Assembly (NCBI GenBank): GCA_963752035.1
Contig: CAVVWZ010000098.1
Location: forward strand, 8,461 to 72,460
DNA from: an uncultured delta proteobacterium
GTDB lineage: Bacteria; Desulfobacterota; WTBG01
Length of the DNA: 64,000 nt
Direction: 5' to 3'
Shown one piece after another: positions 23,226-40,322 of this stretch. The position numbers and the translations under genes were made by a program. Position 1 is the first letter of the stretch; the number at the start of each line of letters is the position of its first letter. Under the pieces are notes generated by a model. That model was not told the DNA's origin. It saw only the letters and a list, made by a program, of their open reading frames with translations, and did no database searches.

Positions 23226-25055
23226 CTATGTGTTTATTTCACTTACTTTTTCATCAGATCCATTATTAAGGGGGCTAACTTCGTTTATAATCTTTTCTAT
23301 TTCATTGTTATCTAACACTTCCCTATCCAGAAGCTCTTTGGCAAGTCGATGCAATAAGTCCATATTCGCTTTGAGGAGATTTATCGCGCGCTCATAGTTT
23401 TCCATGATGATTCTTCTCACTTCTTCATCAATGCGTTCTGCAGTGTCTTCACTATAATCACGGTGCTGTGCAATCTCACGGCCCAAAAATATCTGCTCTT
23501 CCTTTTTCCCAAAGGTAAGGGGACCCAACTTCTCACTCATACCCCAGGCACAAACCATTTTTCGGGCTAAATCCGTTGCCCGCTCTAAATCATTACCCGC
23601 ACCGGTGCTCACATCTTCATTAATAATCTCTTCTGCTGCCCTCCCCCCTAAGAGAACTGAGATTTCAGCCAAAAGGAATTTCCTGGGCTGGGTATATTTC
23701 TCATCCGGCAAATAGTGGGTCTGGCCGAGTGACCACCCCCGAGGAACGATGGTTACCTTATGAATAGGGTCCGTTCCGGGTATCAACTTGGCAACCAGGA
23801 CATGTCCGATCTCATGGTAAGCCGTATTTTCTTTGTCCTCCGGGCTTATGATCATACTTTTCCGCTCCACCCCCATTAACACCTTATCCTTGGCAACTTC
23901 AAAGTCTGTCTTGTCAATCTTCTTCTTTTCCTTGCGGGCTGCCATGAGAGCGGCTTCATTTACCAGGTTAGACAAATCGGCTCCGCAAAAACCCGGTGTC
24001 CCCTTTGCAACCGTTTCTAAATTAACATCATCGGAAAGGGGTTTATTTTTGGTGTGTACTGTCAAAATACCCATCCGCCCCTTTATGTCAGGAAGGGGAA
24101 CCACAACCCGGCGATCAAAGCGTCCGGGGCGGAGCAGTGCCGGATCCAGCACATCAGGCCGGTTGGTAGCAGCTATTAAGATAACCCCTTCGTTAGATTC
24201 GAAGCCGTCCATTTCAACCAGCAGCTGATTTAAGGTCTGTTCCCTCTCATCATGGCCCCCACCGAGTCCTGCACCACGATGCCGACCTACTGCGTCGATT
24301 TCATCAATAAAGATAATACAGGGGGCATTCTTTTTACCCTGCAGGAAAAGATCTCTAACCCTTGAGGCACCTACTCCGACAAACATCTCTACAAAGTCCG
24401 ATCCACTGATGCTGAAAAAGGGTACTCCAGCCTCACCGGCAATGGCACGTGCAAGCAGGGTTTTTCCCGTTCCCGGAGCCCCCATCAGAATAACACCTTT
24501 GGGAATCCTTCCTCCAAGCACAGTGAATTTCTTCGGATCTTTGAGAAATTCAATAATCTCCTCAAGTTCCTCCTTTGCCTCGTCAATGCCTGCAACGTCT
24601 TCGAAGGTAACTTTCTGTTGCTGCTCGGTTAAAAGCTTTGCCCGGCTCTTTCCAAAAGACATTGCCTTGCCGCCGCCTGATTGCATCTGTCTCATCAGGA
24701 AGATCCAAATCGCAATGATAATTATCATGGGGAACCAACTGATCAGGATGGTGGTCCAGGGAGATTGCCTTTCCTCTTCTCCGATGATCATCACCTCTTT
24801 TGCTCTCAAATCCTCAATCAGCTTAGCGTAACCGGGATTGTAAGTTTTAAACTCCTTCCCGCTCAGCAAAGTACCCTGCACATTGTCTCCCTGGATGACT
24901 ACTTCACTTACTTCACCCTTTTCAATCAGGTCCAGGAATTCTGAAAAATTGAGTTCGTCCCGTTTGACCCTCGGTTGACTGAACAAATTAATCAGGAGGA
25001 CAAACACAAGCACTACACCCAACCATAAAGCAATATTCTTGTTCAAACGGTTCAA
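23226..25055 (-). CDS. ftsH: ATP-dependent zinc metalloprotease FtsH
   Basis: Two TM segments, Walker [12 protein letters not shown], second region of homology, zinc site HEIGHVL. Confidence 0.95.
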
Positions 25056-25288
25056 TGGTCACCCCTTTTCCGATAAAAATCTAAATTTTTCAATAATTTT
25101 AACACAAAGATCCTTTATCGGCAAATGAATTATCTGTTTCTATGCAAAAAAAAGGTCCGGATTCTTGCAGGGAGAAATGTAAGGTATTTTTAAGTACATA
25201 ACCATTCAGCACCAGTAAGAATCACACCGCAGTTTTTTGAATAGTGCACTTGAATCTTTATCTCTCAACACTCTTATATCTTTACCTT

Positions 25289-26674
25289 TTAAAGCAGTTC
25301 TATTTTGAGCACTCTTTTTGTACCCTCAGTAACCCGCAGACAGTGATTGATTCTCATCCCCCCTACCCAACCGAGCAGATCACCACAAAAAACCAGGGGG
25401 ACACGCTTTCTTTCGTTCAGTTCCACTTTTTCGTCACTAAAAAAATTCTTTATCTTTTTCTCACCATCCATACCAAATGGCTGAAATGTATCTCCCGGTT
25501 GAGCATTGCGTATGACAAGTGGCATTACAACCTTTTCTGCGTCAAGGTAGGCGACAGAGGGATTTGTGTTCTTCTTGATAACATCAACCGTTCCATCCAT
25601 AAGCTTAAAAACCATCTCCTTTCCTATCTCTTTAAGGCTAACCCTGCCTGGAATGGAACTGTACTGATAGATAAAGGGTAGGACGGTAGGCTGAATGGTG
25701 CTTAGCCTCAAACGGAGATATGATTTCTCCACCCTGATCCCGTCTGGAAGCTTCAGGAGCTTATGTGGTGCCCCACTGGCAGCAATTCCTAAAATATCAT
25801 ACAGATGGATTGAGCTTATCCTTTTTAAATCTCCTTTCACCTTCTGAAGCACCGCCCTCAAACATCTCAACTGCATGACCAGTGGTAATGCTAAAAGCTC
25901 TTTTGTGCCTATCACCACTGACGGGCTCTTCTCGGCAACGATTATTTCATCAAGTGCTTTTGTAGCTTTACTTTCTAAGTATTCGTTTTCTAGACTTAAA
26001 ATCTCTGCTGTATTGACAAGCCTTTTGACAATTTGGGGATTGTAGTGTTCTTCAAGGAGAGGGAAAATTTCCTGGCGAATTCTATTTCTCAGATAATCAT
26101 TTTTTTGATTGGAACTATCGAACACAATGGGAATATTTTTTTTGCTGAGAAACGCCTCAATCTCCATTCTGGTGGTTTCAATCAGAGGTCTTATGATTAC
26201 ACCCCGTACCGGAGGCATGCCTCCCAACCCTTTAAGTCCTGCACCTCTTAAGAGCCACATCATAAGTGTTTCAGCCTGATCATTGGCGTTATGTCCCAGG
26301 GCAATTTTAGTAGCGTTCTTTTTCTTCCTCACCTCTTCTAAAAACTGGTATCGGACTATCCTTGCGGCCTCTTGAGAAGAAAGTGAACACCTCTTTTTGT
26401 ATGCTGGAACATCATAGGTTTCCACTACACAAGACAACCCCATCTCAAGTGCAAGACGTTCAACAAAACCGGCATCCCTTAAAGCCTCTTTTCCTCTAAA
26501 TCCATGGTTGAGATGAGCAACATGTAAGGTAAGATCATAGCTTTTGCTCAGATGCTTCAACACGTAGAGTAATGCCACCGAATCCGGACCACCGGAGACC
26601 CCGACAACAACCCTGTCTCCCGACTCCAACATAGTATGCTTTTGTAGGGTCTTTTTAACCTGTGCTATAAACAT
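25289..26674 (-). CDS. tilS: tRNA(Ile)-lysidine synthetase
   Basis: PP-loop VGVSGGPDSVAL plus the TilS substrate-binding C-terminal domains. Confidence 0.9.
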   Translation of the reverse strand: MFIAQVKKTLQKHTMLESGDRVVVGVSGGPDSVALLYVLKHLSKSYDLTLHVAHLNHGFRGKEALRDAGFVERLALEMGLSCVVETYDVPAYKKRCSLSSQEAARIVRYQFLEEVRKKKNATKIALGHNANDQAETLMMWLLRGAGLKGLGGMPPVRGVIIRPLIETTRMEIEAFLSKKNIPIVFDSSNQKNDYLRNRIRQEIFPLLEEHYNPQIVKRLVNTAEILSLENEYLESKATKALDEIIVAEKSPSVVIGTKELLALPLVMQLRCLRAVLQKVKGDLKRISSIHLYDILGIAASGAPHKLLKLPDGIRVEKSYLRLRLSTIQPTVLPFIYQYSSIPGRVSLKEIGKEMVFKLMDGTVDVIKKNTNPSVAYLDAEKVVMPLVIRNAQPGDTFQPFGMDGEKKIKNFFSDEKVELNERKRVPLVFCGDLLGWVGGMRINHCLRVTEGTKRVLKIELL

Positions 26675-26710
26675 TATTACCGTATTTACTAGGTGAAGAA
26701 TTTTACTGGC

Positions 26711-26925
26711 ACATGATGTGTGATGTGAGATCTGACTTTCAGTAAGATCCTGGTTACTAGTTGCTGGATACTGGGGGTTAGTCAGTCAGCCAACAAAGTA
26801 TTTAAAAGTATCCAGTATCAAGAATCCAGTATCTCTTTTTTGCAATCCCATATCGTTTAATTCTAGCTTCTTGTCTCTGCATCGTGCATCATGTACCCTG
26901 CATCATATATCCTGCATCGTGTCAC
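26711..26925. repeat. Cluster of four different heptanucleotide tandem arrays in the tilS / HAD divergent intergenic region
   Basis: 26711-26738 acatgat/gtgtgat/gtgagat/ctgactt; 26750-26791 ctggtta/ctagttg/ctggata/ctggggg/ttagtca/gtcagcc; 26807-26834 agtatcc/agtatca/agaatcc/agtatct; 26877-26925 ctgcatc/gtgcatc/atgtacc/ctgcatc/atatatc/ctgcatc/gtgtcac. Confidence 0.8.
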
Positions 26926-27120
26926 ATTCTATCACAAACAGAAAATTTTACAACTTAAAAACCTCATAGTTACTGAATAGTTAGCGAGACACAAAGAGTG
27001 CTCACCCCTTTTTTAGCTGCCTGGAACAGAGGATCATGATACTATATTCTTATCAGTAAAGAAAATAGATACCTTATTTTTAGGATGTTAGGAACCTCCA
27101 CCTGCTCCAATGGATACTCA

Positions 27121-27774
27121 ATGCCTATTCAAGCTGTGATCTTTGACCTTGACGGAACCCTCCTTGACACACTGGAGGATATTGCTGACTCTGCAAACAG
27201 CATTCTTGCAAAACGTAATTTCCCCCTGCACGACCTTGATGCTTACCGCCAGTTTGTAGGCAATGGAGTCGGCATGCTCATTGAGCGTGCCCTGCCTCAA
27301 GAGAAGAGAACTACCGCTACCATCAATGAATGTGTACAGGCATTTCGAGATGAGTACGCAGTCAACTGGAACAACAAGACAAAACCATACAGCGGCGTAT
27401 TTGAACTGCTGGATGCACTAACGTCCCGCCACCTCAAGCTAGCGGTACTTTCCAACAAGCCGGACGACTTCACAAAAAGGTGTGTGAGTGAATACCTGTC
27501 ACAATGGCCGTTCGAAATAGTCAAAGGTTTAAACAGCAGCACTCCGCCAAAACCGGACCCTACAGGTGCACAGCAGATAGCCGACCATCTTAAAATCCAA
27601 CCTTCAGACATCCTTTTCCTCGGTGACAGTGGAGTAGATATGAAAACGGCTATCGCTGCGGGGATGTTTCCGGTAGGTGCACTCTGGGGTTTCAAGCCAC
27701 GAGCGGAACTGGAGCATAATGGAGTACAGGCACTTATTGAACACCCTCAAGAACTGCTGACCTTACTCACCTAA
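27121..27774 (+). CDS. HAD-superfamily hydrolase, phosphoglycolate phosphatase-like
   Basis: Motif I VIFDLDGTLLDT, motif II LSNK, motif III GDSGVDM. I take the start at ATG 27121 (MPIQAV...). Confidence 0.75.
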   Translation: MPIQAVIFDLDGTLLDTLEDIADSANSILAKRNFPLHDLDAYRQFVGNGVGMLIERALPQEKRTTATINECVQAFRDEYAVNWNNKTKPYSGVFELLDALTSRHLKLAVLSNKPDDFTKRCVSEYLSQWPFEIVKGLNSSTPPKPDPTGAQQIADHLKIQPSDILFLGDSGVDMKTAIAAGMFPVGALWGFKPRAELEHNGVQALIEHPQELLTLLT

Positions 27775-27790
27775 AACGGAACAGGCACAC

Positions 27791-30143
27791 ATGAAAAAAC
27801 CAAAAAAGGTTGCTATTCTCACCAGCGGAGGAGACGCTCCAGGCATGAATGCAGCCGTCAGGGGGGCAGTAAGGGCCGCACTCAATAAGGGATGGGAAGT
27901 GTACGCTATAAAAGACGGTTACCGCGGCCTCTTAACAGGTGGCGACAGTATCTTTCCCCTGGACTGGGTTGATGTAAGCTGGAATTTTCGGGAGGGTGGC
28001 ACATTTCTTGGTTCAGCACGCTGTCCCGAACTAAAAGGAGAAGGCAGCCAGGCACGGGAGCTGAAAGAACAGGCCTTACTCAACTTACGGAGGCTCAACA
28101 TCTCCTCCCTGGTAATCGTAGGTGGCGATGGCTCATTAACCGGAGGGTATTCACTCTTCAGGATGTTACAAAATAAAGAATACACAAATCCCGAACTGAG
28201 AAACATGCACCTTTCAATAGTGGGCATACCCGGAAGCATTGACAATGATATCGCTTATACTGACATGTCCGTAGGGGTGGATACCACGCTCAATACCATT
28301 GTTGAATGTATTGACAAACTCAGGGACACAGCCACCTCCCACAGGCGTGTCATCATTGTAGAAGTCATGGGTCGACTCCGAGGCTATCTGGCCGTCATGA
28401 GCGGGCTGGCAACCGGTGCAGATCGTGTGTTTGTCCGCGAGGAAAAAATTAACCAGAACGAACTAACCAAACTGCTCCTCGTACTGCGGAAAAGCTTTGA
28501 TTGCGGGCAAAAGGCAGGCATTATAATCCGGTCGGAAGGTGCCAGGTTTTCCACCAGCTTTTTAAAAGAGACAATCGATGTGCTCCTCAAACCGGAAAGG
28601 GAGGTAAGGGAAACTGTCTTAGGCCACCTGCAGAGGGGTGGTAATCCTACGGTTTTTGAGAGAACCCTGGCAACCAGAATGGGGGTAAAGGCAATTGAGC
28701 TGCTGGAAGAAACCCACTGCAGAACCTCAACTGGTGGGCTTGCACGCAAAGACCCTCAAACCGGTCTCTCTGTCCAGATCTCTCACTAAGATTAAGACTC
28801 CCTCCTTCCAGGAGGATTTGAGTCCTAACACCAAAAGTGCCTTTCATCTGAGCAGAATGCTGGAAAACCCTCCCGAGGAAAAATACCGGGGAACTACTAT
28901 TGCCCTGCTCACCGATGGCAATAATGTTTCCGGGATGAACATGGCAATCCGTGCCGTAGCCCGGTTGGCTCTCAATCGGGGGATTGCTGTCAAAGGCATC
29001 AAAGGGGGCTTTCAGGGGTTTACCAGAGGCCTTGGAAGCACCCTGAACCTGGAATGGAGCATGCTTGAAATGAAGAGCATTCTGCGCAGGGCAGGCACAC
29101 TGCTCGGCGTCTCCAGCAGTGGATTCACCATGAACACAAACGGCTATGAGACCATTGCTCAACAGGTAAAACAGCTACGCATTGATGGACTTATCGTCAT
29201 TGGAAATAAGGCGGCCTACCATAACTCACACAAATTAGCGTCCCTGATTAACCTGCCGGTTGTGGGTATTCCTGCGGATTTAAGCTGTAATCTGCCAGGC
29301 ACAGACTGGGTAATTGGCATGGATTCCACCTTAAATGATCTTTTACAGGGTATTGACAGGGCAGCTGATGCTGCACATGTAAAGAGAAAAATCTTCATCA
29401 TCACCTTAAATGGAGACTACTGCAGTTGTTTAGTTAGGCTTGCAGCACTGGCAGGAGGAGCAGAGCAGTTACTTATTGAAGAGGACCTTTCGGGAACCAG
29501 AGGGCAAAATTCCTTCCGGAAGAAGGTCCGGCAGAGTGTTAGGGAATTGAAAAGGATGTTTGAAATGGGGAAAACATTTGGCACCATAGTCTTTGCCCCA
29601 AACCATCCCGAAGCAACAGAAAGCTCTATTCAGTATATCAAACAGGCTGTTGACAAGGCCGGTATTGCCCTTGATGTGACAGTCATCCCTCTGGAAACCT
29701 CATTAGGGGGAATCATCCCCACTGCCTTTGATCGCATCCTGGCCAAGCGGTTGGGAGAAAAGGCAATAGACACGGTACAGAAGAAAATCGATACTCGAGA
29801 CTATGCTTTTCAAACGGTAGGAATCAAGGGAAAAAGAATTGTTTCTCCCTATTATGAGGACAGTGAAGGCAAACACAGCCGCAGCTGTTCTAAAGTCCTT
29901 GAAAAGGATCTCCAGCGCTGTTTCAACCTTATGGCCCAGCAGCAAGAAGCCTGCATTGGCGTCGGGGGCACCGTACAGTGGGACGAAACAAGCAATGAGG
30001 ACAGTTGGCTTGGGAAATGGACCTGTCACAAGTGTGGACATACACAAAAGTTCCTCTTCAACCCAAAGAGAATGCACTGTGTCTATTGTGAAAAACCAAA
30101 CTGTCACAACTATGGGTACGTAAGAATCTCTCGTCGCCTGTAG
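27791..30143 (+). pseudogene. pfkA: ATP-dependent 6-phosphofructokinase fused (after one +1 correction) to a degenerate second PFK-like half and a C-terminal zinc ribbon
   Basis: First half has LTSGGDAPGMNAAVRG, VGGDGSLTG, PGSIDND and VEVMGR. Its homologous C-terminus (...PQLVGLHAKTLKPVSLSRSL...) lies in the frame of ORF 28695..30143, reached by skipping one base near 28712. That frame stays open into a second half with LTDGNNVSGMNMAIRAV, VIGNKAAY and GIPADLSCNLPGTD. It ends in CHKC-x14-CVYC. Confidence 0.7.
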
Positions 30144-30234
30144 ACCGGTTATGAATACATTTCCCTTCTTCCCCCTCTCCCCATGGGGCTTGCCCCTGGC
30201 CGAAACAGGGGTCAGCTAGGGAAGGAAAGGCTGA

Positions 30235-30447
30235 ATGATGAAACCGAAAATCATTTTAGCGGCAGTTGTTATCACCGCCATTGTAATCATCCTCATTCAA
30301 AACACACAGGTAGTCACCGTGAGGTTGTTTTTCTGGAAGGTGAGCATGTCGCAAATCATCCTGATTTCCCTGACACTGCTTATCGGCCTTGTCATCGGGT
30401 TCATTGCCGCCACCTTTTTTAACAAGCGCCATAAAAAGGTACCCTAA
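30235..30447 (+). CDS. LapA-domain (DUF1049-like) small inner-membrane protein
   Basis: 70 aa, two TM helices flanking ...NTQVVTVRLFFWKVSMSQ..., basic C-terminal tail. Confidence 0.5.
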   Translation: MMKPKIILAAVVITAIVIILIQNTQVVTVRLFFWKVSMSQIILISLTLLIGLVIGFIAATFFNKRHKKVP

Positions 30448-30468
30448 ACCTCAGATGGAGAAAATCGC

Positions 30469-30996
30469 GTGGTATGCATGGGAAGAATAATGCTTTGTAT
30501 CACAGTATGTGTTCATTTATTGTTATTGGGGTGCACCGGCAAGAAAAACGATATTGTTCAGCTAGCACATTATCCTCTTGACAGTATTGATGGTATACTT
30601 ACCCGTTCGGACACTATCCTTGACCAAAACATCTCAAGTGATCAGAAGGGTTCACTGCGGATTAGCACCGAAAAACCTGCTACCGTGAGGTTGTATGAGC
30701 TCGGTGATATAGATGTTGAAAATGCTCGTCTGATTTACCAGGCACACCTTCGCACTGAAGAGGTTACCGGACAGGTGTATCTGGAGATGTGGTGTCACTT
30801 TCCCGGCAAAGGTCAGTTTTTCTCCCGGGGGCTGGATTCCCCCCTGTCGGGGAGCACTGAATGGACAACACAGGAAACACCTTTTTTCCTCAAGAAAGGC
30901 GAAAATCCTGACGATATTAAACTCAATCTGGTTATTAATGGAGCAGGCACTGTCTGGATCGATGACATACGTTTGCTTAAGGGACCACTCTTGTAG
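30469..30996 (+). CDS. Putative lipoprotein, hypothetical
   Basis: Signal peptide with lipobox LLLLGC. GTG start 8 nt after GGAG. No family recognised. Confidence 0.5.
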   Translation: MVCMGRIMLCITVCVHLLLLGCTGKKNDIVQLAHYPLDSIDGILTRSDTILDQNISSDQKGSLRISTEKPATVRLYELGDIDVENARLIYQAHLRTEEVTGQVYLEMWCHFPGKGQFFSRGLDSPLSGSTEWTTQETPFFLKKGENPDDIKLNLVINGAGTVWIDDIRLLKGPLL

Positions 30997-31081
30997 GAGT
31001 ATTGTAGACCACACTACCTCATGTTTGTATACTATTTTACTGCTAAACGATCTAAATACTAATGAATTAGGAGATTTTTTT

Positions 31082-32763
31082 ATGGCACAAGACAAACAGA
31101 AAACCAATTCTCAGACCATCACTTCAGAATACTCACCAAGTCCATCAGGAGAGATGTTCAACCTACCAACAACAGATGACTACACAGCAGAATTCGAGCG
31201 GGTAGAAAAGCTGGTTCAACAGGCCCGCAGTGAGGGCAAGGAGATCGTCGTGGTGATGGGCGTCGGATTCGTCGGCGCGGTGATGGCCGCGATCGTCGCC
31301 GACACGCAAGACGAAACGGGAAGCAGCACCAAGTTCGTCATCGGCTGCCAGCGGCCCAGTACGCGCAGCTACTGGAAGATCCCGCTGCTCAACCGCGGCG
31401 AGTCCCCGGTCAAGGCCGAGGACCCTGAGGTCGATCCGATGATCGCCCGCTGCGTCTAGAGAAGAAGACCCTGACCGCGACCTTACAACAGCGACTGCCT
31501 CAAGCTGGCCGACTGCGTGGTGTCGACGTGCAGTGCGACTACACCAAGCACGACCTCGGCAACATGCGCACAGGCGAGACCGAGATGGCCGCCCTCGAGG
31601 CGACCATGCGCACCATCGGCGAGAAGATCCACCCCGACTGCCTAGTGCTGATCGAGACCACCGTCGCACCGGGCACGACCGAGTTCGTCGCCTGGCCGAT
31701 CCTGAAGAAGGCCTTCGCCAACGCGGCATCGACGCCGAGCCGCTGCTCGCCCACAGCTTCGAGCGGGTGATGCCGGGCAGGGAGTACGTCTCCAGCATCC
31801 GCGACTTCTGGCGTGTCTGTGCAGCGGCTGCGACGACGAGGCCCGCGAGCGGGTCGAGACAGTTCCTGCGCGAGGTGCTCAACACCAAGGACTATCCCGC
31901 TGACGGTGATGGATCGGCCGATCGAGTCGGAGACCACCAAGATCGTCGAGAACTCCTACCGCGCGACGATCCTGGCCTTCCTCAACGAGTGGAGCCTGTT
32001 TGCCGAACGCAACGGCGTGGACCTGATCAAGGTCATCGACGCGATCAAGATGCGGCCGACGCACAGCAACATGATCTTCCCCGGCCCCGGCATCGGCGGC
32101 TACTGCCTGCCCAAGGACGGCGGGCTGGGCTACTGGGCCTACAGGCACATCCTGGGCTTCGAGGACGGCGACAGCGTCTTCAAGATCACGCCGACGGCCA
32201 TCGACATCAACGACACCCGGGCATTACACGTCGCCGAGCTCACCCGCGACGCCCTGCGCAACATGGACCGCTACATCGCCGGGGCCGATGTACTGATTTG
32301 CGGCGCAAGCTACCGCCAGGACGTGGGCGACACACGTTACAGCGGCACTGAGATGGTCGTACGCAAACTGACCGAGATGGGCGCCGAGATGCGCGTGCAC
32401 GATCCCTACGTCGATCACTGGTACGAACTGGAGAACCAGGATGTCTATCCGTCACCGGAGCTTTCCTGGAAACGGTTTTTTAGAAATCAGGAGGAATTAG
32501 GAAATATACGCATTCAAAAAGATCTGCCTTCAGCACTCAAGGACGTGGAAGCAGTCATTTTTGCTGTTCCCCACAAATCCTACCTCGATCTCAATCCGGA
32601 CGATGTGGTCTCATGGGCAGGGAATCCTCTCGCAGTAATAGACTGTTTCGGCATTCTGCCTGATGATACGATACGCAGGTACTTCGAGCTTGGTTGCGAA
32701 GTTAAGGCCCTCGGCCGGGGACATGTGCAGCGCATTAAAAAGGAGGTGCAAAAGCAGCGGTAA
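31082..32763 (+). pseudogene. Nucleotide-sugar dehydrogenase (UDP-glucose/GDP-mannose dehydrogenase family), fragmented, with a compositionally foreign core
   Basis: Rossmann motif VVVMGVGFVGAVMA, central ESETTKIVENSYRATILAFLNEW, catalytic GPGIGGYCLPKDG, C-terminal UDP-binding domain (ICGASYRQDVGDTRYS). The sense is spread over ORFs 30938..31459, 31528..31770, 31533..32351 (part) and 31813..32763. Confidence 0.75.
31200..32460 (+). other. High-GC segment embedded in-frame in a low-GC gene
   Basis: Hand counts of G+C per 60 nt: 24 (31081-31140), 28 (31141-31200), 35 (31201-31260), 41 (31261-31320), 41 (32101-32160), 38 (32341-32400), 33 (32401-32460), 20 (32461-32520). Codon third positions switch from mostly A/T to almost all G/C. 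Confidence 0.85.
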
Positions 32764-32826
32764 TACCGACACTTTTAGTTCGTCTACCCTTTAAGTGAAA
32801 AACTGTCCTGTGCGAGGAAAACTATC

Positions 32827-33030
32827 ATGAGCACCGAAACACATATCCCACAAACCCCACTTGAGATCCTGCAGGCTGCCCTTGAAAAAGAGAAAGACGC
32901 ATACCATTTCTACAACAACCTTCTTAACACTACTACAGTATTGTTTCTGCAGGAACTGCTTGAGCAGCTGCGGGATGAAGAGCACAAACACATTCTCATG
33001 ATAGAAAAGAAAATTGCCAAGATGAAGTAA
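32827..33030 (+). CDS. Small ferritin-like / rubrerythrin-family helical protein
   Basis: 67 aa. ...LEKEKDAYHFYNNL...LLEQLRDEEHKHILMIEKKI resembles a single ferritin-like helix pair with an ExxH motif. Confidence 0.4.
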   Translation: MSTETHIPQTPLEILQAALEKEKDAYHFYNNLLNTTTVLFLQELLEQLRDEEHKHILMIEKKIAKMK

Positions 33031-33035
33031 ACTAC

Positions 33036-33054
33036 CACCCGTGATACACGGGTG
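33036..33054 (+). terminator. GC-rich hairpin after the ferritin-like ORF
   Basis: cacccgtg-ata-cacgggtg: 8-bp stem, no T tract. Confidence 0.25.
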
Positions 33055-33133
33055 AAACAAAGGAAAGCAAGCAGGCAGGTAAAGATCTCTGTTTAGAACT
33101 AATTGGCCAGAATGGGCTGAGGGAGCACTCCTG

Positions 33134-33592
33134 TTGATTGATGCAGTGGATCACATAAATCTGGTTGTTTCCGATTTGGAGCGTTCTGTTCGCTTTTACA
33201 CAGAACTGCTGGGGTTTAAGGAAGTCCGAAGGGCACATCTTGAAGGGCAGTGGATTGAATCCATCATAGGCCTCAAGGATGTCCGTGCCAATGTGGCCTA
33301 CATTGTAGCACCTGAAGGTGAACCCCGCCTGGAACTGCTGTGCTATGAATCACCCTGTGGTGAAACAGTTCCGGCACATTCCCGGGCAAACACAACCGGA
33401 TTACGTCACATTGCCTTCAGAGTCAAAAACATTGAGGACGCTGTCAAACGTCTGAAACTGGCACAGGTACAGATTGTCGGTGATACGGTTGCGGTACCGG
33501 CCACTGCCATAACACACGAGGCGGGACAGAAAGTATTGTGTTATTTTCTCGATCCTGATGGTATACTGTTAGAACTGGCTGAATATCGTTAA
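33134..33592 (+). CDS. VOC-family protein (glyoxalase I / dioxygenase fold)
   Basis: IDHINLVVSDLERSVRFYTELLGF...GLRHIAFRV...YFLDPDGILLEL. TTG or GTG start. Confidence 0.75.
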   Translation: MIDAVDHINLVVSDLERSVRFYTELLGFKEVRRAHLEGQWIESIIGLKDVRANVAYIVAPEGEPRLELLCYESPCGETVPAHSRANTTGLRHIAFRVKNIEDAVKRLKLAQVQIVGDTVAVPATAITHEAGQKVLCYFLDPDGILLELAEYR

Positions 33593-33653
33593 CAAAGTTT
33601 TGATTGCATAATCTTTCTGCGACACAAAGAAAAACCCACTGAGGAGCAAGAAG

Positions 33654-33992
33654 ATGATTGATGACACAATTTCAAAAATCGAAGGCAAACTAAAACAGAT
33701 CAAACCGAAAAAAGAAGAAAATAAAACCCAGTTGCTCAAGCTCCTTTCAACATTAAAATCAGAAGTTGAAGATCTTTCAAAAACCAAGGGTGAGCAGGCT
33801 GAAAGCATACTCAATTTTGCCGCACTTTCAACCCACGAAGCAACACGTCAGGATAAGGATAAGAACCCTCAGCAGTTACAGCTTTCCATAGATGGTTTGT
33901 CCTCATCAGTTGATGGTTTTGAGGCTTCACATCCAACCCTTGTGGGAACGGTTAACAGGATATGCGTCATGCTTTCCAATCTGGGCATCTAA
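33654..33992 (+). CDS. DUF4404-like protein
   Basis: 112 aa with the C-terminal pattern ...DGFEASHPTLVGTVNRICVMLSNLGI. The stop overlaps the next start (TAATG). Confidence 0.45.
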   Translation: MIDDTISKIEGKLKQIKPKKEENKTQLLKLLSTLKSEVEDLSKTKGEQAESILNFAALSTHEATRQDKDKNPQQLQLSIDGLSSSVDGFEASHPTLVGTVNRICVMLSNLGI

Positions 33993-34920
33993 TGAAATAC
34001 TTTTTCCTGTTCGCTGTTTTTGTCTTTATCATCACAACCCCCTGTTTCGGCCAGACCAGACCAGACCAATCTTCTGTTCTCTACGCAATTGCCGAGCTGC
34101 CTACCCCCGTATTAAATACCGCCGATTTCACGTTTGTCTTTGGCAGCTACCGATGGAAAAACCCTTCACCGTGATGACTCCGGTTTGATCCGGGAAGTGG
34201 AGTTTATTGCCCTGCCCGAAACAGTGTTTAAGATTGAAGAGGTTATCCCCGGCACTGCCCCTACCATATACCGGGTAACCACGGAAGACTACCCCTACCC
34301 TACCCGGAAAGGATACTTTATCGACAGCAGATTCGTAACCACACTCAATTATAAACCGCCCCGTCGATTACGAAAATTGCCACCACAAAGTGTTATCATC
34401 AACAATCTGCTTTCAGCCGAAAAACAAAGCTACCTGTGGGGAGGAAACTATAGGCAAGGCATACCACAGATGCTCACCTTTTATCCTCCACCCATTCCTC
34501 TCAGCCAGGACATCAAAGATCAGTGGACACTGAAAGGACTTGACTGTTCTGGCCTGCTCTATGAAGCAACCAATGGCTGCACCCCCAGAAATACAAGCTC
34601 CCTCATATCCTTCGGTGAACCGGTAAATAATAGCCACCTTAGATTCAGATCAGATCATACAGACACTTCAAACGTTAGACATACTAGTATGGAAAGGTCA
34701 TGTCATTATCGTTATTGACAAGGACCGGGCCATCGAAAGCCGGCTTGACTATGACACCAAACGGGCAGGGAACCAGGGTGGTGTCAGAATCCGTTCACTC
34801 AAAGAAGTACTTGATGAAACACTTGAGGAGCGGGTACCGGTCAATGAGTATACGGATGTAGTTGAAGGTGTGAAAAAGAAGTTTGTCGTACGCAGGTGGT
34901 ATAAACAGCCGAAAAGATGA
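33992..34920 (+). pseudogene. NlpC/P60-family (C40 peptidase-like) exported protein with two +1 frame shifts
   Basis: Signal peptide MKYFFLFAVFVFIITTPCFG. Catalytic-Cys context GLDCSGLLYEA and His context LDILVWKGHVIIVIDKD lie in different frames. Shifts sit at the A5 run 34157-34161 and near 34626. Confidence 0.5.
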
Positions 34921-34960
34921 ACGTCGAACATCGAACGTCCAACATCGAATGTTGAATGAT
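34919..34960. repeat. Heptanucleotide tandem array, module A
   Basis: gaacgtc/gaacatc/gaacgtc/caacatc/gaatgtt/gaatgat, starting at the NlpC/P60-like stop codon. A near-identical array lies at 47574-47608. Confidence 0.85.
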
Positions 34961-35066
34961 AAAAATGAGACCCAGGGGACGTTCCTGAAATATTTCCTTA
35001 TGTAAACCAGTTATCACGTTTTCAGCTGTACTCCGTAAGCCGGTTAAGTTTTATGTTTTGGGTATT

Positions 35067-35101
35067 TGAATTCTGACTTCTGACTCCTGAATTCTGACTT
35101 C
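35067..35101. repeat. Heptanucleotide tandem array, module B
   Basis: tgaattc/tgacttc/tgactcc/tgaattc/tgacttc. A related array (tctgact/cccgtct/tctgact...) lies at 47883-47931. Confidence 0.85.
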
Positions 35102-35133
35102 TTTTTTATGTACCCCTACTAAGGAGACCCGTC

Positions 35134-36358
35134 ATGAAAACACTACCAATTATTCACACTTTGTGTATTGACCATTTTGGCAGTAACTGTCTGCACCTCC
35201 AGCATTTCTCTTGGAACACCTGACAAGGTAGACACCCAAAACCTTGTGGATGGGAAACACCACATTTGCCCTTGATCTTTACAACAAACTTCGTGAACAA
35301 GAGGGAAACCTGTTTTTCTCGCCCTACAGTATTTCAACTGCCCTTGCGCTGACCTATGCAGGAGCCCGTGGAAGCACTGCGCAGCAAATGGCCGAGGTGC
35401 TCAATTTCACCGGAGATCAGGATCAACTCCATTCCTCATTTGCCCATCTCCAGACACAGCTGAATGCCGAACAGGAAAAGGGGGATGTTCAACTCAACAT
35501 AGCTAATGCCCTGTGGGCAGAAAATGATTACTCTTTTCTGAAAGATTTTCTTGATTTGACCAATAAGCATTATAAAGCTTCTCTCATCCGCGTGGACTTT
35601 AAAAACAATTCAGAACAGGCACGCATACAGATCAACGAGTGGGTAGAACAGAAGACAAATAATAAAATCAAGGATTTAATTCAACCGGGCATCCTCAACG
35701 CCACTAACCCGCCTGGTTCTTACTAATGCCATATATTTTAAGGGTGACTGGGCAATCCCGTTTCGGGAGAGGTCTACACAAGACGCTCCGTTTTGGCTTA
35801 CGAGCGACAAATCGGTCACGGTGCCGCTGATGAGTCAGCAAGGAGGATTTTAGGTATGGAAAAAATGAAGCCATGCAGCTGCTTGAATTACCTTACACGG
35901 GGAACAACCTTTCAATGATCGTCCTCTTACCCAATGAGGTGGACGGGCTGTCAACGATTGAAAACACCTTAACGCAAGACAATTTAGCTTCCTGGCTAAA
36001 GCTTCTCAGAAAGCGCGAAGTGAGAGTATTCCTGCCGAAATTCAAGATGACTTCTGAGTTTAATCTGTCACGCATGCTTGGTGCCATGGGGATGCCCGAT
36101 GCCTTTACCCCACAGGCTGATTTTTCCGGTATGACAGGAAACAAAGACCTGTTTATCAATGCAGTAATTCACAAGGCATTCGTGGATGTCAATGAAGAGG
36201 GGACCGAGGCAGCTGCAGCAACCGCAGTAACTATGAGAATGACAGCAGTGGCCACCCCTCCGCCAGAGTTTCGTGCAGATCACCCCTTTCTCTTTCTGAT
36301 CCGTCACAATCCTTCGGGCAGCATCCTGTTTTTTGGAAGGGTTATCAATCCCATTTAG
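35134..36358 (+). pseudogene. Serpin (serine protease inhibitor) with a lipoprotein-type signal, interrupted by four +1 frame shifts
   Basis: AAGGAG then 7 nt then ATG 35134. Signal ...LAVTVC lies in the +1 frame. Serpin body: NTTFALDLYNKL...FFSPYSISTALALTYAGARGSTA, | TRLVLTNAIYFKGDWAIPF |, MQLLELPY...LSMIVLLP. Hinge EEGTEAAAATAV, C-terminal FRADHPFLFLIRH. Shifts near 35149, 35255-35257, 35706 and 35848-35851. Confidence 0.8.
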
Positions 36359-38052
36359 AGTTCCAGGCTGGCAAGTTTCTTTATGCCCAGTCTCATGGGC
36401 ATGATGAAGGTGAGAACCAGCAGGAGAAAAGCCACGGTAAAAAGACCGATTACTTCTGTGAGTTCTCCACTGGTAAGCGGTACTCCACGCATCCTTGAGA
36501 TAAAAAAGAGGTAAACCGGGCGAGCCTCCAGGATGACCACCAGCCCAACAAAGCATACTGCTACGATCATATAGAGCATACCGCCGAAGCCGGTTGGAAT
36601 CTGGGAAACGTTTTCGACTTTAAACCGGGGGAACCAGGCTCCAAACCCGATACCCAGGCTGGTAATACCAAAGGTCATCCCTGCAATAGTAATGACTGAA
36701 AGTCCCAGCATAAAAGGAGTTGCGTTCATTAAAATATCAGTGGTGATAATCAACAGTTCTGCAGGAATCAGCAGAAAGAAGAAGTTCATCCAGAACTTGC
36801 TCCACACCAGTGTGCGCAACTCTAAAGGTGACGTCTTGAGAATCCAAAAGGATTTTCCCTCCAGACTGATGCTTGGGAAGGTGAATCGAACCGCTACTGC
36901 TGAAATAACAAAGGCTGCCAAACCAAGATTAATAAATGAAATCAAGTTCTGAAGGTAAAAAGTAGGCATTGGTGATTTATCGAGGGGAAGCACACTGAAG
37001 TTATATATATAAATGACAACCAGTGCACAAATGAGAAACAGCTGAGGCCACTGGTTGGTATCCCTTAAAAAAACCTTCAAATCTTTGAGTACAATGACCC
37101 GGGTCTGCGGGGGGAAGGGCTTAAGCAACAGTTCCATTAATCGATTAGCGAATTTAGACCGGGTAATACGGGCTGCTTTAGCCTCCTGGGCCTTCGACCA
37201 GGCATCATAGTAAATCTTCTCAAAGATCCACTCCCCTATCACAACAAAAGCCAAGCCCGTACTCCACAGCACAAGTAAAAAGAACCACCAGTCCCCCAGA
37301 TCATCAAAGAGAAAGGGGGTGATGGCATTGGCTGCCCACTGGCTGGGTATAAGGGGCGATGTGGGCACTTGCAGATTACTGATATAGTCCATCACCAGGT
37401 AGAAACTCTCAGGATCTACAAGTCGTTCCGGCTGGAGAAAGCGAATAAATATAAATACCCCCACTACTAAAAAAATGGAGGCAACCAGTATGATATCTTT
37501 CAATCGACGCGCCGGGAATATATAGACCAAAAGGAGTATCAGAACAATACCCACGGCAGCAGATATGAGAAGAAAGGGAACAAGTACCCCTGCCAGGGTA
37601 AAATAATACAAGGGAGAGGCACTATAGACCATTCCGTAAGCCAGAAAAACCGGAAAGCTGAAGAAGAGAACTGTCCAGGAACTATTGACAATATTTTCAA
37701 TGAACCTGCTGACATAGAGGTGTAGACCTGATATGGGCAGGGCATTTAACAGCTGCAAATCATCCGATAAAAAGTAAGTAGAGAGCGCCGTAATGACGTT
37801 ACTGAATATTAACAGAGAAAAAAAGGCAAGGAAGACCATGGAAAGCAGCTTTGAGGCAAGCAGTGTCCCGATCACCTCGATACTCGAAAAATAGCTGAGC
37901 ACCTTAAAAAAGATGAAAAACGTTCCCAGCCAGAAGAGCAAACCCATAGTAAAAAAAATACCATAACGCAGGAGCTTTCTCTTGCTTCCCCTGCTTGAAG
38001 CATTTTTATAGGAAAGTACTTTTGGTTTGAGGAGTGAAATAATCTCGTGCAT
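36355..38052 (-). CDS. Polytopic ABC-2-type exporter permease (putative)
   Basis: 565 aa, 12 or more predicted TM helices, 12 nt downstream of the ABC ATPase gene. Confidence 0.6.
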   Translation of the reverse strand: MHEIISLLKPKVLSYKNASSRGSKRKLLRYGIFFTMGLLFWLGTFFIFFKVLSYFSSIEVIGTLLASKLLSMVFLAFFSLLIFSNVITALSTYFLSDDLQLLNALPISGLHLYVSRFIENIVNSSWTVLFFSFPVFLAYGMVYSASPLYYFTLAGVLVPFLLISAAVGIVLILLLVYIFPARRLKDIILVASIFLVVGVFIFIRFLQPERLVDPESFYLVMDYISNLQVPTSPLIPSQWAANAITPFLFDDLGDWWFFLLVLWSTGLAFVVIGEWIFEKIYYDAWSKAQEAKAARITRSKFANRLMELLLKPFPPQTRVIVLKDLKVFLRDTNQWPQLFLICALVVIYIYNFSVLPLDKSPMPTFYLQNLISFINLGLAAFVISAVAVRFTFPSISLEGKSFWILKTSPLELRTLVWSKFWMNFFFLLIPAELLIITTDILMNATPFMLGLSVITIAGMTFGITSLGIGFGAWFPRFKVENVSQIPTGFGGMLYMIVAVCFVGLVVILEARPVYLFFISRMRGVPLTSGELTEVIGLFTVAFLLLVLTFIMPMRLGIKKLASLEL

Positions 38053-38064
38053 TACTGTCCCTGA

Positions 38065-38823
38065 CTAAAACTTTAAAGCTTCAACCACCTTCTGAACCTC
38101 ATCCCCACCAATGAGTTTAAAGAAAATGGCATCCAGTGTATTTCCCTGACTTCCCGATTGTTCTCTTAAGTCTTGGATAGTCCCTACTGCAACAATTTTG
38201 CCTTTCTGAATTATTGCAATACGGTCACATACTTCTTCGGCAATTTCTAGGGTGTGGGTAGACATGAACACGGTTCCCCCCTGCTCACAAAAACCTCTTA
38301 ACACTTCCTTTACCAGCCTGGCACCACGGGGGTCAAGGCCGACCATGGGTTCATCTACAATAATCAATTTCGGTTGGTGAATGAATGCAGCCGCCATTAC
38401 CAGACGCTGTTTCATTCCATGGGAAAAACTCTCAATCAGCTCATTGTGCCACTCAGTAAGTCCAAAGAGCCTTAAGAGATAGTCTATCCGTTCTTCAACA
38501 CCATTGGAAGCACAGTTGTAGAGACCTGCAATAAACCTTAAAAATTCCAGTGCGGTCAGCTTCTCATAGAGGAACGGACGATCCGGAATAAAACCTACTA
38601 CGCCCTTAGCACGATTGGGGTACAGCGCTAAATCCCACCCATCGATGGTTACCGTTCCACTGCTGGGCTTTAGCAAGCCGGCTAACATCTTAATGGTAGT
38701 GGTTTTACCTGCCCCGTTAGGCCCCAGGAAGCCAAAGATTTCTCCGGGCTTCACCTCAAGGTCAATGGTATCCACCGCAGTAAAATTGCCAAATTGTTTG
38801 CTCAGGCCTTGTAACATGATCAT
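38065..38823 (-). CDS. ABC transporter ATP-binding protein
   Basis: Walker A GPNGAGKTT, signature SHGMKQRL, Walker B LIIVDEP, H-loop STH. Confidence 0.9.
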   Translation of the reverse strand: MIMLQGLSKQFGNFTAVDTIDLEVKPGEIFGFLGPNGAGKTTTIKMLAGLLKPSSGTVTIDGWDLALYPNRAKGVVGFIPDRPFLYEKLTALEFLRFIAGLYNCASNGVEERIDYLLRLFGLTEWHNELIESFSHGMKQRLVMAAAFIHQPKLIIVDEPMVGLDPRGARLVKEVLRGFCEQGGTVFMSTHTLEIAEEVCDRIAIIQKGKIVAVGTIQDLREQSGSQGNTLDAIFFKLIGGDEVQKVVEALKF

Positions 38824-40322
38824 TTGTATTCCATGACCTCCAATTTCAGGACTCCTATCAATTTAATAATCTCAAGCTGCTTTTCCAAGTCGCCCTCAAT
38901 AAAACAAATGTGTGTTGCGTCAACGGGAAGCTGGTCGAATGTGGGGTCCACACTGATCCACCGTCCCACAAACACCTCTGACCAGGCATGGTAATAAAAA
39001 CTCCCCTGCATATAAACTATCCCGGCGCAGAGTTTGCTCGGTATCCCTACCGCTCGGCAGAGGGCAACAAAGAGTGTAGAGTGCTCATTACAGTCCCCTA
39101 CTTTGACCTTTAGAATATCAAGTGCACTTGGAATGCTCAGGGTTGGTTTTTTCTCAATAGTACGAAAAACCCAATCCATAATGAGCTTAACCGCTTTGAG
39201 TGAATTCACTTCATCACCAACAATTTCCTGTGCCTTTGCTACAAGAGCCTTATCGGTACTTTGGATAAAAACAGTTGGCTGGAGAAATGCCTTCTTGTCT
39301 TCCCGTGTATAGGGAATTGTGTAAGCACGCAGATCAGACATATCCTCTTTCCTGATTTCCAGCACATCGCCATGACGTTTTTGCCTGTCAGAAGAAAGTG
39401 CAAACTCTTCAAGATTAATATTCCCGAGCCGTACTTTAAGGTATGAAGGATCCGCAATGGCAATTGGTCTGTTGACAGAAATGGTACTTGCTGAAATCAG
39501 GTCCTTTGTGGTTTCACCCCAATTTTCCGTAAGCGCATCAGCTTTACTCTCTTTTATCAACATTAAACCAAGGGGACTTTCCTCTTTGATGGTGCTACCG
39601 TCCTCATCAATCCATGATCTGATGGTAATCCCCTTAAAAGTACTTTTTATACGATAGCATTCAATGCTCTTATCCCGTAAAGCAATCTCTTCTATCCCCT
39701 CAACCAGGACATCCACTGGAGTGGTACTCATAGTAGAGGGATCAAAGACACTGTATCTGAACTGTTTTCCCACTATCAGGCCATCAGCAAGCATCAAGGA
39801 TTTGAGCGAACTTGCAAGACAGGGTATATCTTTTAAAGGAATGATGCTCTGTTTTGTACTCCCTCCGGATAAGATATCCATGTGCAATCTATTTTCTTTT
39901 ATCCTGCCCTTTGCCTGAAATGTAAAAAGGTTTGAAAACATTCTAAACTCGAATGAATTGAGTATAAATGCATTATCTACCTTAGAAGTAATCTGCGTAT
40001 CTATTCTCTGAGGGGTCCCCATCACGGTCAGATCCATGATGCCCTGTTCATGAATCACATAACCGTTAAAGGCCTTTTTAATCTTCGAAACGGTGTATCC
40101 AACCTTGTCCTCTCCCCAGTATATACCCATCCACTCCTCCCGGGGACGGAGTTGATGTTCTGAACGGTGGGTGTTGACGTAGCTCTCAGAGGCGTTAAAA
40201 TAGGTTCTTTGAACAAGTATGCCCATCACCAGGATCCACACGATCACGATAGATAGTCTGACAACTCTGTATGCGCTCATCCCTTTAGGTTTCATAAAAA
40301 TGTAAATCCTCCCCTCTCGCAC
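38820..40322 (-). CDS. Membrane-anchored transglutaminase-like (Cys-His-Asp) domain protein
   Basis: N-terminal TM helix. C-terminal core GDCNEHSTLFVALCRAVGIPSKL...YYHAWSEVF...WISVDP. Its stop overlaps the ABC ATPase start by 4 nt. Confidence 0.75.
   Translation of the reverse strand: MREGRIYIFMKPKGMSAYRVVRLSIVIVWILVMGILVQRTYFNASESYVNTHRSEHQLRPREEWMGIYWGEDKVGYTVSKIKKAFNGYVIHEQGIMDLTVMGTPQRIDTQITSKVDNAFILNSFEFRMFSNLFTFQAKGRIKENRLHMDILSGGSTKQSIIPLKDIPCLASSLKSLMLADGLIVGKQFRYSVFDPSTMSTTPVDVLVEGIEEIALRDKSIECYRIKSTFKGITIRSWIDEDGSTIKEESPLGLMLIKESKADALTENWGETTKDLISASTISVNRPIAIADPSYLKVRLGNINLEEFALSSDRQKRHGDVLEIRKEDMSDLRAYTIPYTREDKKAFLQPTVFIQSTDKALVAKAQEIVGDEVNSLKAVKLIMDWVFRTIEKKPTLSIPSALDILKVKVGDCNEHSTLFVALCRAVGIPSKLCAGIVYMQGSFYYHAWSEVFVGRWISVDPTFDQLPVDATHICFIEGDLEKQLEIIKLIGVLKLEVMEYK

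Follow-up and report, generated by a model that had tools for sequence, protein, structure and literature searches.

The question raised by this locus is whether a gene of an uncultured bacterium had its middle replaced by foreign DNA inside a cell, or whether that middle was composed during the assembly of a metagenome. The gene, a nucleotide-sugar dehydrogenase at 31082-32763, lies in a 64-kb stretch of DNA that was analysed as a whole and is called the window here. A sequence-only reading had pointed out a GC-rich core between about 31200 and 32460 and had offered two origins for it, gene conversion from a GC-rich donor, or an assembly that is chimeric or was patched across a gap. The mosaic stood up to comparison with related sequences, and of the two origins the evidence favours an assembly artefact. 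We believe with good confidence that the patch is a consensus or polishing chimera from metagenome assembly, a sequence that exists in no cell. We favour the artefact because the core is a blend of host and foreign bases, a donor is absent, seven indels and two hybrid codons lie within the patch, and its extent is that of the stretch alignable across phyla.

A GC-rich patch within a host-type gene

The patch, from 31236 to 32430, had a G+C content of 64.6% (772/1195), compared to 44.6% in the remainder of the 64-kb window. Every 300-bp window inside the patch had a G+C fraction of at least 0.63, about five standard deviations (z about 5) from the 300-bp windows outside (mean 0.447, sd 0.041), whose maximum was 0.543. 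The earlier statement that nothing else in the 64 kb has this composition was thus borne out. When the intact native allele was used to set the codon positions, GC3 was 0.92 in the patch, 0.45 in the N-terminal flank and 0.51 in the C-terminal flank, and the native allele gave 0.56 over the same codons; third codon positions in the patch are indeed almost all G/C, as had been claimed. Hand counts of G+C that had been given for single 60-nt segments (24/60, 20/60 and 41/60) were reproduced on recounting, except that the second segment reported as 41/60, 32101-32160, contains 40/60.

The native allele was taken from L083, a JGI contig from a different sample than the window. Outside the patch, each 50 nt contained 0-4 differences from L083; from 31236 to about 32430 the count rose to 7-20. 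The high-GC stretch as such was confirmed, and its ends had to be moved, since foreign-type bases run from 31236 to about 32430. Substitutions relative to L083 in the patch (n = 216) were strongly directional, with 167 from A/T to G/C and 14-15 in the opposite direction. Across the rest of the window, comparison with a near-identical strain gave 54 AT-to-GC and 56 GC-to-AT substitutions, unbiased and evenly spread. Both divergence and composition therefore change abruptly inside the gene, as they do in a mosaic. Rfam and tRNA scans of the window gave no matches. The parts of the gene, all on the plus strand, are the following.

31082..31235, plus strand: host-type 5' part with the start codon and a lineage-specific N-terminal extension, in frame 2
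31236..31295, plus strand: first converted tract, spanning the Rossmann GxGxxG motif
31296..31330, plus strand: host-type island within the patch, encoding a variable TQDETGSST segment
31331..32430 (end approximate), plus strand: GC-rich core, 64.5% G+C, GC3 0.92, a blend of foreign-type and host-type bases
31455..31899, plus strand: indel cluster, seven events with a net of +2, plus a premature TAG at 31457-31459
31630..31632, plus strand: hybrid codon CAC (His), a column-wise mix
32347..32349, plus strand: hybrid codon ACT (Thr), a column-wise mix
32431..32763, plus strand: host-type 3' part, the C-terminal ~110 codons with the stop TAA at 32761-32763, in frame 1
31082-31459, plus strand: public-record fragment P0286, 125 aa, annotated in NCBI and ENA
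31906..32763, plus strand: public-record fragment P0280, 285 aa, annotated in NCBI and ENA

The 5' part was 97-99% identical to the native allele of L083, with a G+C fraction of about 0.42-0.46. The 3' part matched L083 at 92-100% in 40-nt windows and any other lineage at no more than 78% in 90-nt windows; in blastn, this C-terminal flank found the related contigs L001 and L002 at 91.6-91.7%, and the next lineage followed at 72%. Outside the patch, the host base was present at all of the host-exclusive sites (58/58). The first converted tract differed from L083 by eleven substitutions, nearly all of them toward G/C and toward the state of the GC-rich homologues, and in 40-nt windows it was nearer to the GC-rich consensus than to L083. 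The island that follows returned to the host type, with one difference from L083 in 34 nt and eight host-exclusive bases at 31307-31329. At the same place the GC-rich homologues carry a 3-nt insertion and divergent sequence, and the identity of the host allele to the GC-rich consensus was 0.55.

Relatives carry an intact native allele

L083, which was 97-99% identical to the window in both flanks, contains an intact gene with host-clade residues throughout. Two further contigs, L001 and L002, are syntenic with the window and share with it the order FtsH, TilS, HAD, PFK, 175-aa protein, dehydrogenase, glyoxalase, DUF4404, 309-aa protein, serpin and ABC. Both carry intact dehydrogenase genes of uniform ~50% G+C (557 and 555 aa), and the native genes of L083 and these two relatives together span 555-559 aa. 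The orthologous locus, whose comparison had been put forward with the sequence-only reading, lacks the high-GC core in all three. We conclude that the mosaic is real as a feature of the contig, because a close relative and two syntenic relatives keep an intact gene of uniform ~50% G+C. Every one of the closest relatives is a metagenome contig, and the sister assemblies in ENA bear Flye-style 'contig_N' names.

The dehydrogenase and its conservation

The encoded protein carries the Rossmann (GxGxxG) sequence VVVMGVGFVGAV at about 31244-31279 and the catalytic-Cys motif GIGGYCLPKDG (GGxCxxKD) at about 32087-32119; translation placed both within the patch, where the Rossmann motif and GGYCLPKDG had been said to lie. 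The conceptual translation covers all three domains of the family (PF03721, PF00984 and PF03720), and the homologues carry PF03721. Against TIGR03026, which has a cut-off of 189.8 bits, the frameshift-corrected translation scored 187.8 bits and the native orthologue P0003 scored 192.3 bits. Among solved structures, 3g79 is the nearest. As a nucleotide-sugar dehydrogenase the protein is an ordinary one, and it shares the Rossmann motif, GGYCLPKD and the three domains with the UDP-glucose/GDP-mannose dehydrogenases; it differs from them in that the window copy is broken.

The 559-aa subfamily is far more conserved across phyla than the characterised members of the family. Amino-acid identity of the dehydrogenase across many phyla was 77-84%, and among the genes checked in the window it was the only one so conserved. 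For DnaK, the only other gene compared and by far the less conserved of the two, identity went down to about 80% among the best 120 matches, and the nearest named DnaK relatives were Thermodesulfobacteriota MAGs. The relatives hold the dehydrogenase gene under strong constraint.

Foreign affinity of the core and the search for a donor

Matching the flanks and the core separately gave different answers. For the flanks, identity to the host lineage was 92-99%, and no more than 78% was reached by the next best match. The best DNA matches of the core, at 85-87%, were GC-rich Planctomycetota MAGs (L058, L053, L009, L021 and L036), and its identity to the host alleles was 80-81% (81% to L083). The gene thus begins and ends host-like around a foreign-like middle, as the earlier reading held, and the shared best matches that would have spoken against a mosaic were not what we found. 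About 15 host-clade-diagnostic positions showed a non-host residue when they lay in the patch and the host residue when they lay beyond it. Over the core, the native allele and the GC-rich homologues were 73-78% identical.

Among 79 genome loci searched by blastn, the best candidate for donor DNA reached 87%. A search of 5.8 billion proteins, with the full protein and with the core alone, returned no donor protein above 93% identity to the core, and the best protein matches to the core were the host clade itself. The best-matching genome also shifted along the core between successive 90-nt windows. A 29-mer from the core and a flank pattern for further copies of the host allele each gave 0 matches in JGI metagenome contigs; both scans are weak evidence because the collection did not contain L083, which bears the flank pattern. 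Exact look-up in NCBI and ENA found the chimeric fragments on one contig only, a result of limited power for recurrence. This contig is 77,122 bp long and also encodes a DnaK identical to that of the window.

Host and foreign bases are interspersed in the core

We scored as diagnostic those sites at which the three host alleles agree on a base that is absent from seven GC-rich homologues. In the patch, the host base was present at 28 of 113 such sites (25%; binomial p = 8e-13), compared to a leave-one-out host-base rate of 4.9% (range 1-9.5%) for real GC-rich homologues. Third positions of the core that are A/T carried the host base in 27 of 29 cases, compared to 24-48% in real homologues, and at 20 of the 27 retained sites at least 80% of the GC-rich homologues show G/C. 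Allowing either the GC-rich consensus or the host base at each site accounted for 96.9% of core positions and left 34 unexplained; real sequences left at least 80 (mean 117). On a 10-sequence panel, the window had about 5 private substitutions, four of which equal host alleles, compared to 23-45 for sequences without a close relative on that panel.

Host-type and foreign-type sites did not form tracts, as 65 runs were observed and 66.5 expected (runs test, z = -0.3). Host bases were retained preferentially where the foreign sequences disagree with one another (Mann-Whitney p = 5e-7). Judged by the pattern of bases, this interspersion looks more like voting than like recombination. The view that foreign DNA cleanly replaces the middle of the gene had to be given up, as host and foreign bases are mixed site by site in the core and the patch contains a host-type island at 31296-31330.

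Two codons of the core are absent from all 82 homologues, and both are column-wise hybrids. The window reads CAC at 31630, against CCC in the host and CCG, CAG or CAA in other homologues; His occurs at this position in 0.6% of 159 homologues. At 32347 it reads ACT, where the host has AGT and the others AGC, TCG or TCC, and the Thr replaces a Ser that is invariant in 159/159 homologues.

The start of the patch, its end and the interruption at 31296-31330 coincided with places where the identity of host and GC-rich sequences falls below about 0.6-0.7; by this measure the end lies at about 32425. In conserved islands, the host allele and the GC-rich consensus were 0.85-0.93 identical (40-nt windows). 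L083-private alleles were shared by the window at 4 of 43 sites on the 10-sequence panel, which is only suggestive, and on the 82-sequence alignment the same test had no power because third positions are saturated. A plurality vote of the host and 35 GC-rich homologues took identity to the core from 90.9% to 92.3%. With the plurality model at 92.3%, the real foreign component is not captured by the panel, and we therefore do not claim a many-species consensus for it; a single very GC-rich donor population and a foreign component from many species are equally possible.

The reading frame is broken by clustered indels

The GC-rich core had been described as lying in frame within one gene from 31082 to 32763. 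That gene is not a single intact ORF in the window, where seven indels and a premature TAG break it. The ORF that opens with the ATG at 31082 runs in frame 2 and ends at the TAG at 31457-31459, whereas the stop at 32761-32763 belongs to frame 1. Each junction of the patch is in register locally, as had been noted, and this does not extend to the gene as a whole, since the N- and C-terminal flanks are in different frames (net +2).

We placed the indels by three-frame translation and by alignment to L083, L001, L002 and the seven GC-rich homologues. In order, they are a deletion after 31455 (-1), an insertion at 31483 (+1), a deletion after 31521 (-1), a deletion near 31718 (-1), a 2-nt insertion at 31823-31825 (+2), an insertion near 31859 (+1) and an insertion near 31894-31899 (+1). 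All seven lie inside the patch, in the sub-stretches with the greatest local divergence between host and foreign sequences. Once the frameshifts were corrected, the product was 559 aa, matching the length of the homologues, with no internal stops and with only two unusual residues.

The seven indels fall within 445 bp, compared to up to about 1.4 per kb for the window against related assemblies elsewhere (8 gaps in 5.76 kb, blastn against L082). The density in the patch is roughly 4 to 10 times the level elsewhere. Other frame-breaking single-base insertions in the window, at 28719, 34147, 34628, 35252 and 35701, hit the PFK gene, the 309-aa gene and the serpin. We take the assembly to be probably error-prone because of the level of up to ~1.4 indels per kb and these other frame-breaking insertions.

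A consensus chimera as the probable origin

In the reading that we prefer, the host would be an uncultured Thermodesulfobacteriota-like bacterium with an ordinary ~50% G+C allele of the conserved 559-aa dehydrogenase. Reads of one or more GC-rich members of the community would have been recruited to the conserved core. A base-by-base consensus would then have adopted foreign bases at the majority of sites and retained the host base at the rest, and indels would arise where host and foreign reads align badly. We infer that the causal step was the assembler's consensus or a polisher, and we infer the sequencing platform likewise. At an overall identity of 73-78%, foreign reads would map to the host gene only if seeded in the more conserved islands. 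Only the dehydrogenase would be affected because its exceptional conservation across phyla would attract foreign reads. The indel density and the Flye-style names of the sister ENA assemblies are indirect indications that the assembly was made from error-prone long reads. By the same indications, a Nanopore/Flye/Medaka-type pipeline, of the kind described in PMC12313526, is a candidate for the origin of the contig.

Compared at the level of sequence, the patch fits the cross-recruitment consensus errors known from metagenome assemblies, in which reads from other taxa are drawn to conserved genes at the consensus or polishing step. The likeness appears in an anomaly restricted to one exceptionally conserved gene and in an extent equal to the stretch alignable across taxa. 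It appears also in the per-site mix of resident and foreign bases, the excess of indels, the hybrid codons and the occurrence in a single assembly.

The allele in the cell is almost certainly the ordinary low-GC one, and for this reason the patch is most likely unimportant as biology. If the artefact reading is true, a public MAG contig in NCBI and ENA contains a 1.2-kb stretch that belongs to no organism and that splits a strongly conserved gene into two pseudo-fragments in the public record. Screens by composition or phylogeny would take the patch for horizontal transfer or gene conversion. Such an error can be recognised by a signature, in which resident and foreign bases are mixed site by site, codons are hybrid, indels cluster, and the limits equal those of the cross-taxon alignable stretch. 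Other highly conserved genes in metagenome assemblies could be screened with it for patches of this kind.

Alternative origins of the patch

A real homeologous gene conversion from a GC-rich homologue, with the indels as ordinary sequencing errors, is unlikely, even though several observations are in its favour. The patch has sharp boundaries that fall in conserved sequence, the coding register is kept locally at each junction, and the frame-breaking insertions elsewhere in the window mean that indel errors do occur. Donors would also be plentiful for a family found in very many phyla at 77-84% identity. What weighs against conversion is, first, the density of indels, about 4 to 10 times that elsewhere, and the scattering of host bases by site and not in tracts, together with the two hybrid codons. 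Second, no donor lineage exceeded 87% nucleotide or 93% amino-acid identity, the core has almost no lineage-specific substitutions, and the near-identical contig L083 keeps the native allele. The parents would moreover be 25% divergent, and such divergence far exceeds what homologous recombination normally tolerates. Were the patch real, it would be a rare case of recombination across ~25% divergence between alleles, and as a homeologous conversion in an environmental genome it would be unusually divergent.

Natural mosaic genes are known from the penicillin-binding-protein genes of Streptococcus and Neisseria, which arose by interspecies homologous recombination. Such mosaics have an unbroken reading frame, are built of contiguous parental tracts and recur in independent isolates, and their donors are usually 5-20% divergent and identifiable. 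The patch resembles them as a divergent block in a host-like gene with junctions in conserved sequence. It differs from them in seven breaks of the frame, a random mixture of parental bases, the absence of a donor from the databases searched and a near-identical relative that is native. Of the features expected of a natural mosaic, the patch therefore lacks the donor, the contiguous tracts, the preserved frame and the recurrence, the last of these judged with limited power.

A chimera at the level of the layout, or a gap patch, in which a foreign read or contig piece from one GC-rich organism was spliced in, has a low probability in our view. It would account for a core that is foreign-like overall and nearest to GC-rich Planctomycetota MAGs, and for chimeric fragments that are known from one contig. 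A spliced piece would be purely foreign, however, and the core has 25% host-exclusive bases. The host-type island at 31296-31330, the host A/T bases at third positions and the hybrid codons likewise speak against it, and a switch from host to foreign and back to host within 1.2 kb would be unlikely if the reads were long.

We give a similarly low probability to a real import of the ~1.2-kb core from one or more GC-rich members ~25% divergent from the host, followed by patchy heteroduplex repair, with the gene now inactive or the indels due to sequencing errors. If an import were real, its patchy mismatch repair could in principle likewise leave host bases interspersed. GC-biased gene conversion or mismatch repair shares with the patch a strong AT-to-GC excess (167 vs 14-15). 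Under GC-biased repair, A/T would be expected to survive only at sites that are A/T in both parents. This kind of repair was rejected as an explanation on the 20 of 27 sites at which host A/T was kept although at least 80% of the GC-rich homologues have G/C, and it leaves the indels and the hybrid codons unaccounted for.

It is very improbable that the patch is a real recombinant since decayed, that is, a gene that was converted, lost its function and has been gathering mutations as a pseudogene, although the broken frame, the premature stop and the two fragments in public annotation would suit such a history. Natural decay yields many more substitutions than indels, and here seven indels stand against about five private substitutions, four of which equal host alleles. 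Correcting the indels restores a 559-aa protein without internal stops and with two unusual residues only, and the gene is under strong constraint in the relatives. A codon-recoded or synthetic origin was rejected, as ~15 host-clade-diagnostic amino acids switch to the state of other lineages.

Frameshifts and local consensus quality

Several frameshifts are clustered in the window at 28.7–36 kb. This clustering points to a consensus sequence of poor quality locally. Three broken genes were examined by comparison with L001 and L002, the syntenic metagenome contigs of relatives.

27791–30143, PPi-phosphofructokinase-like gene, present as two ORFs (332 aa and 482 aa)
34134–34718, 309-aa gene downstream of DUF4404, broken by single-base insertions at 34147 and 34628
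35244–36358, serpin gene, broken by single-base insertions at 35252 and 35701

With L001 as the reference, in which the PPi-phosphofructokinase-like gene is a single gene of 783 aa, its split in the window is caused by a single-base insertion at 28719. In L002, the same gene was called in two pieces (627 aa and 155 aa). For the 309-aa and serpin genes, the insertions were placed against the intact copies in L001 and L002.

Split genes are also present in the sister ENA assemblies (L082 and L001).

Split genes in sister ENA assemblies
ClpA-like, two pieces, 638 aa and 118 aa
RNase E/G, two pieces, 82 aa and 288 aa
Serpin, two pieces, 243 aa and 162 aa
Split-gene regions, L082 12887–15159 and 3834–4917; L001 9855–11079

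The positions of these splits differ from those in the window. The differing splits are consistent with a common error-prone assembly method.

Relatedness along the locus

Compared over window positions 25000–39000, the relatedness of the window to L001 shifts along the stretch. Recombination between strains may be the cause, or one of the assemblies may be chimeric at the strain level. Identity was 97–99% at 25.0–30.2 kb and only 88–91% at 33.1–39.0 kb.

The dehydrogenase subfamily and the adjacent spacer

The 559-aa nucleotide-sugar dehydrogenase subfamily (window 31082–32763; loci L003–L081) shows 77–84% amino-acid identity between phyla, in a comparison of MAGs from Bacteroidota, Planctomycetota, Verrucomicrobiota, Acidobacteriota, Acidimicrobiia, Thermodesulfobacteriota and Thermoplasmatota. 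No gene neighbours of the dehydrogenase are conserved across phyla among these loci. The cross-phylum identity may reflect either extreme constraint or wide recent transfer. The nearest solved structure, 3g79, is distant.

The spacer following the dehydrogenase (window 32764–33133; L002 7669–7992) was also found in the JGI metagenome contig L083 and is mostly missing from L001. This spacer contains a small ORF resembling rubrerythrin, as called in L002.
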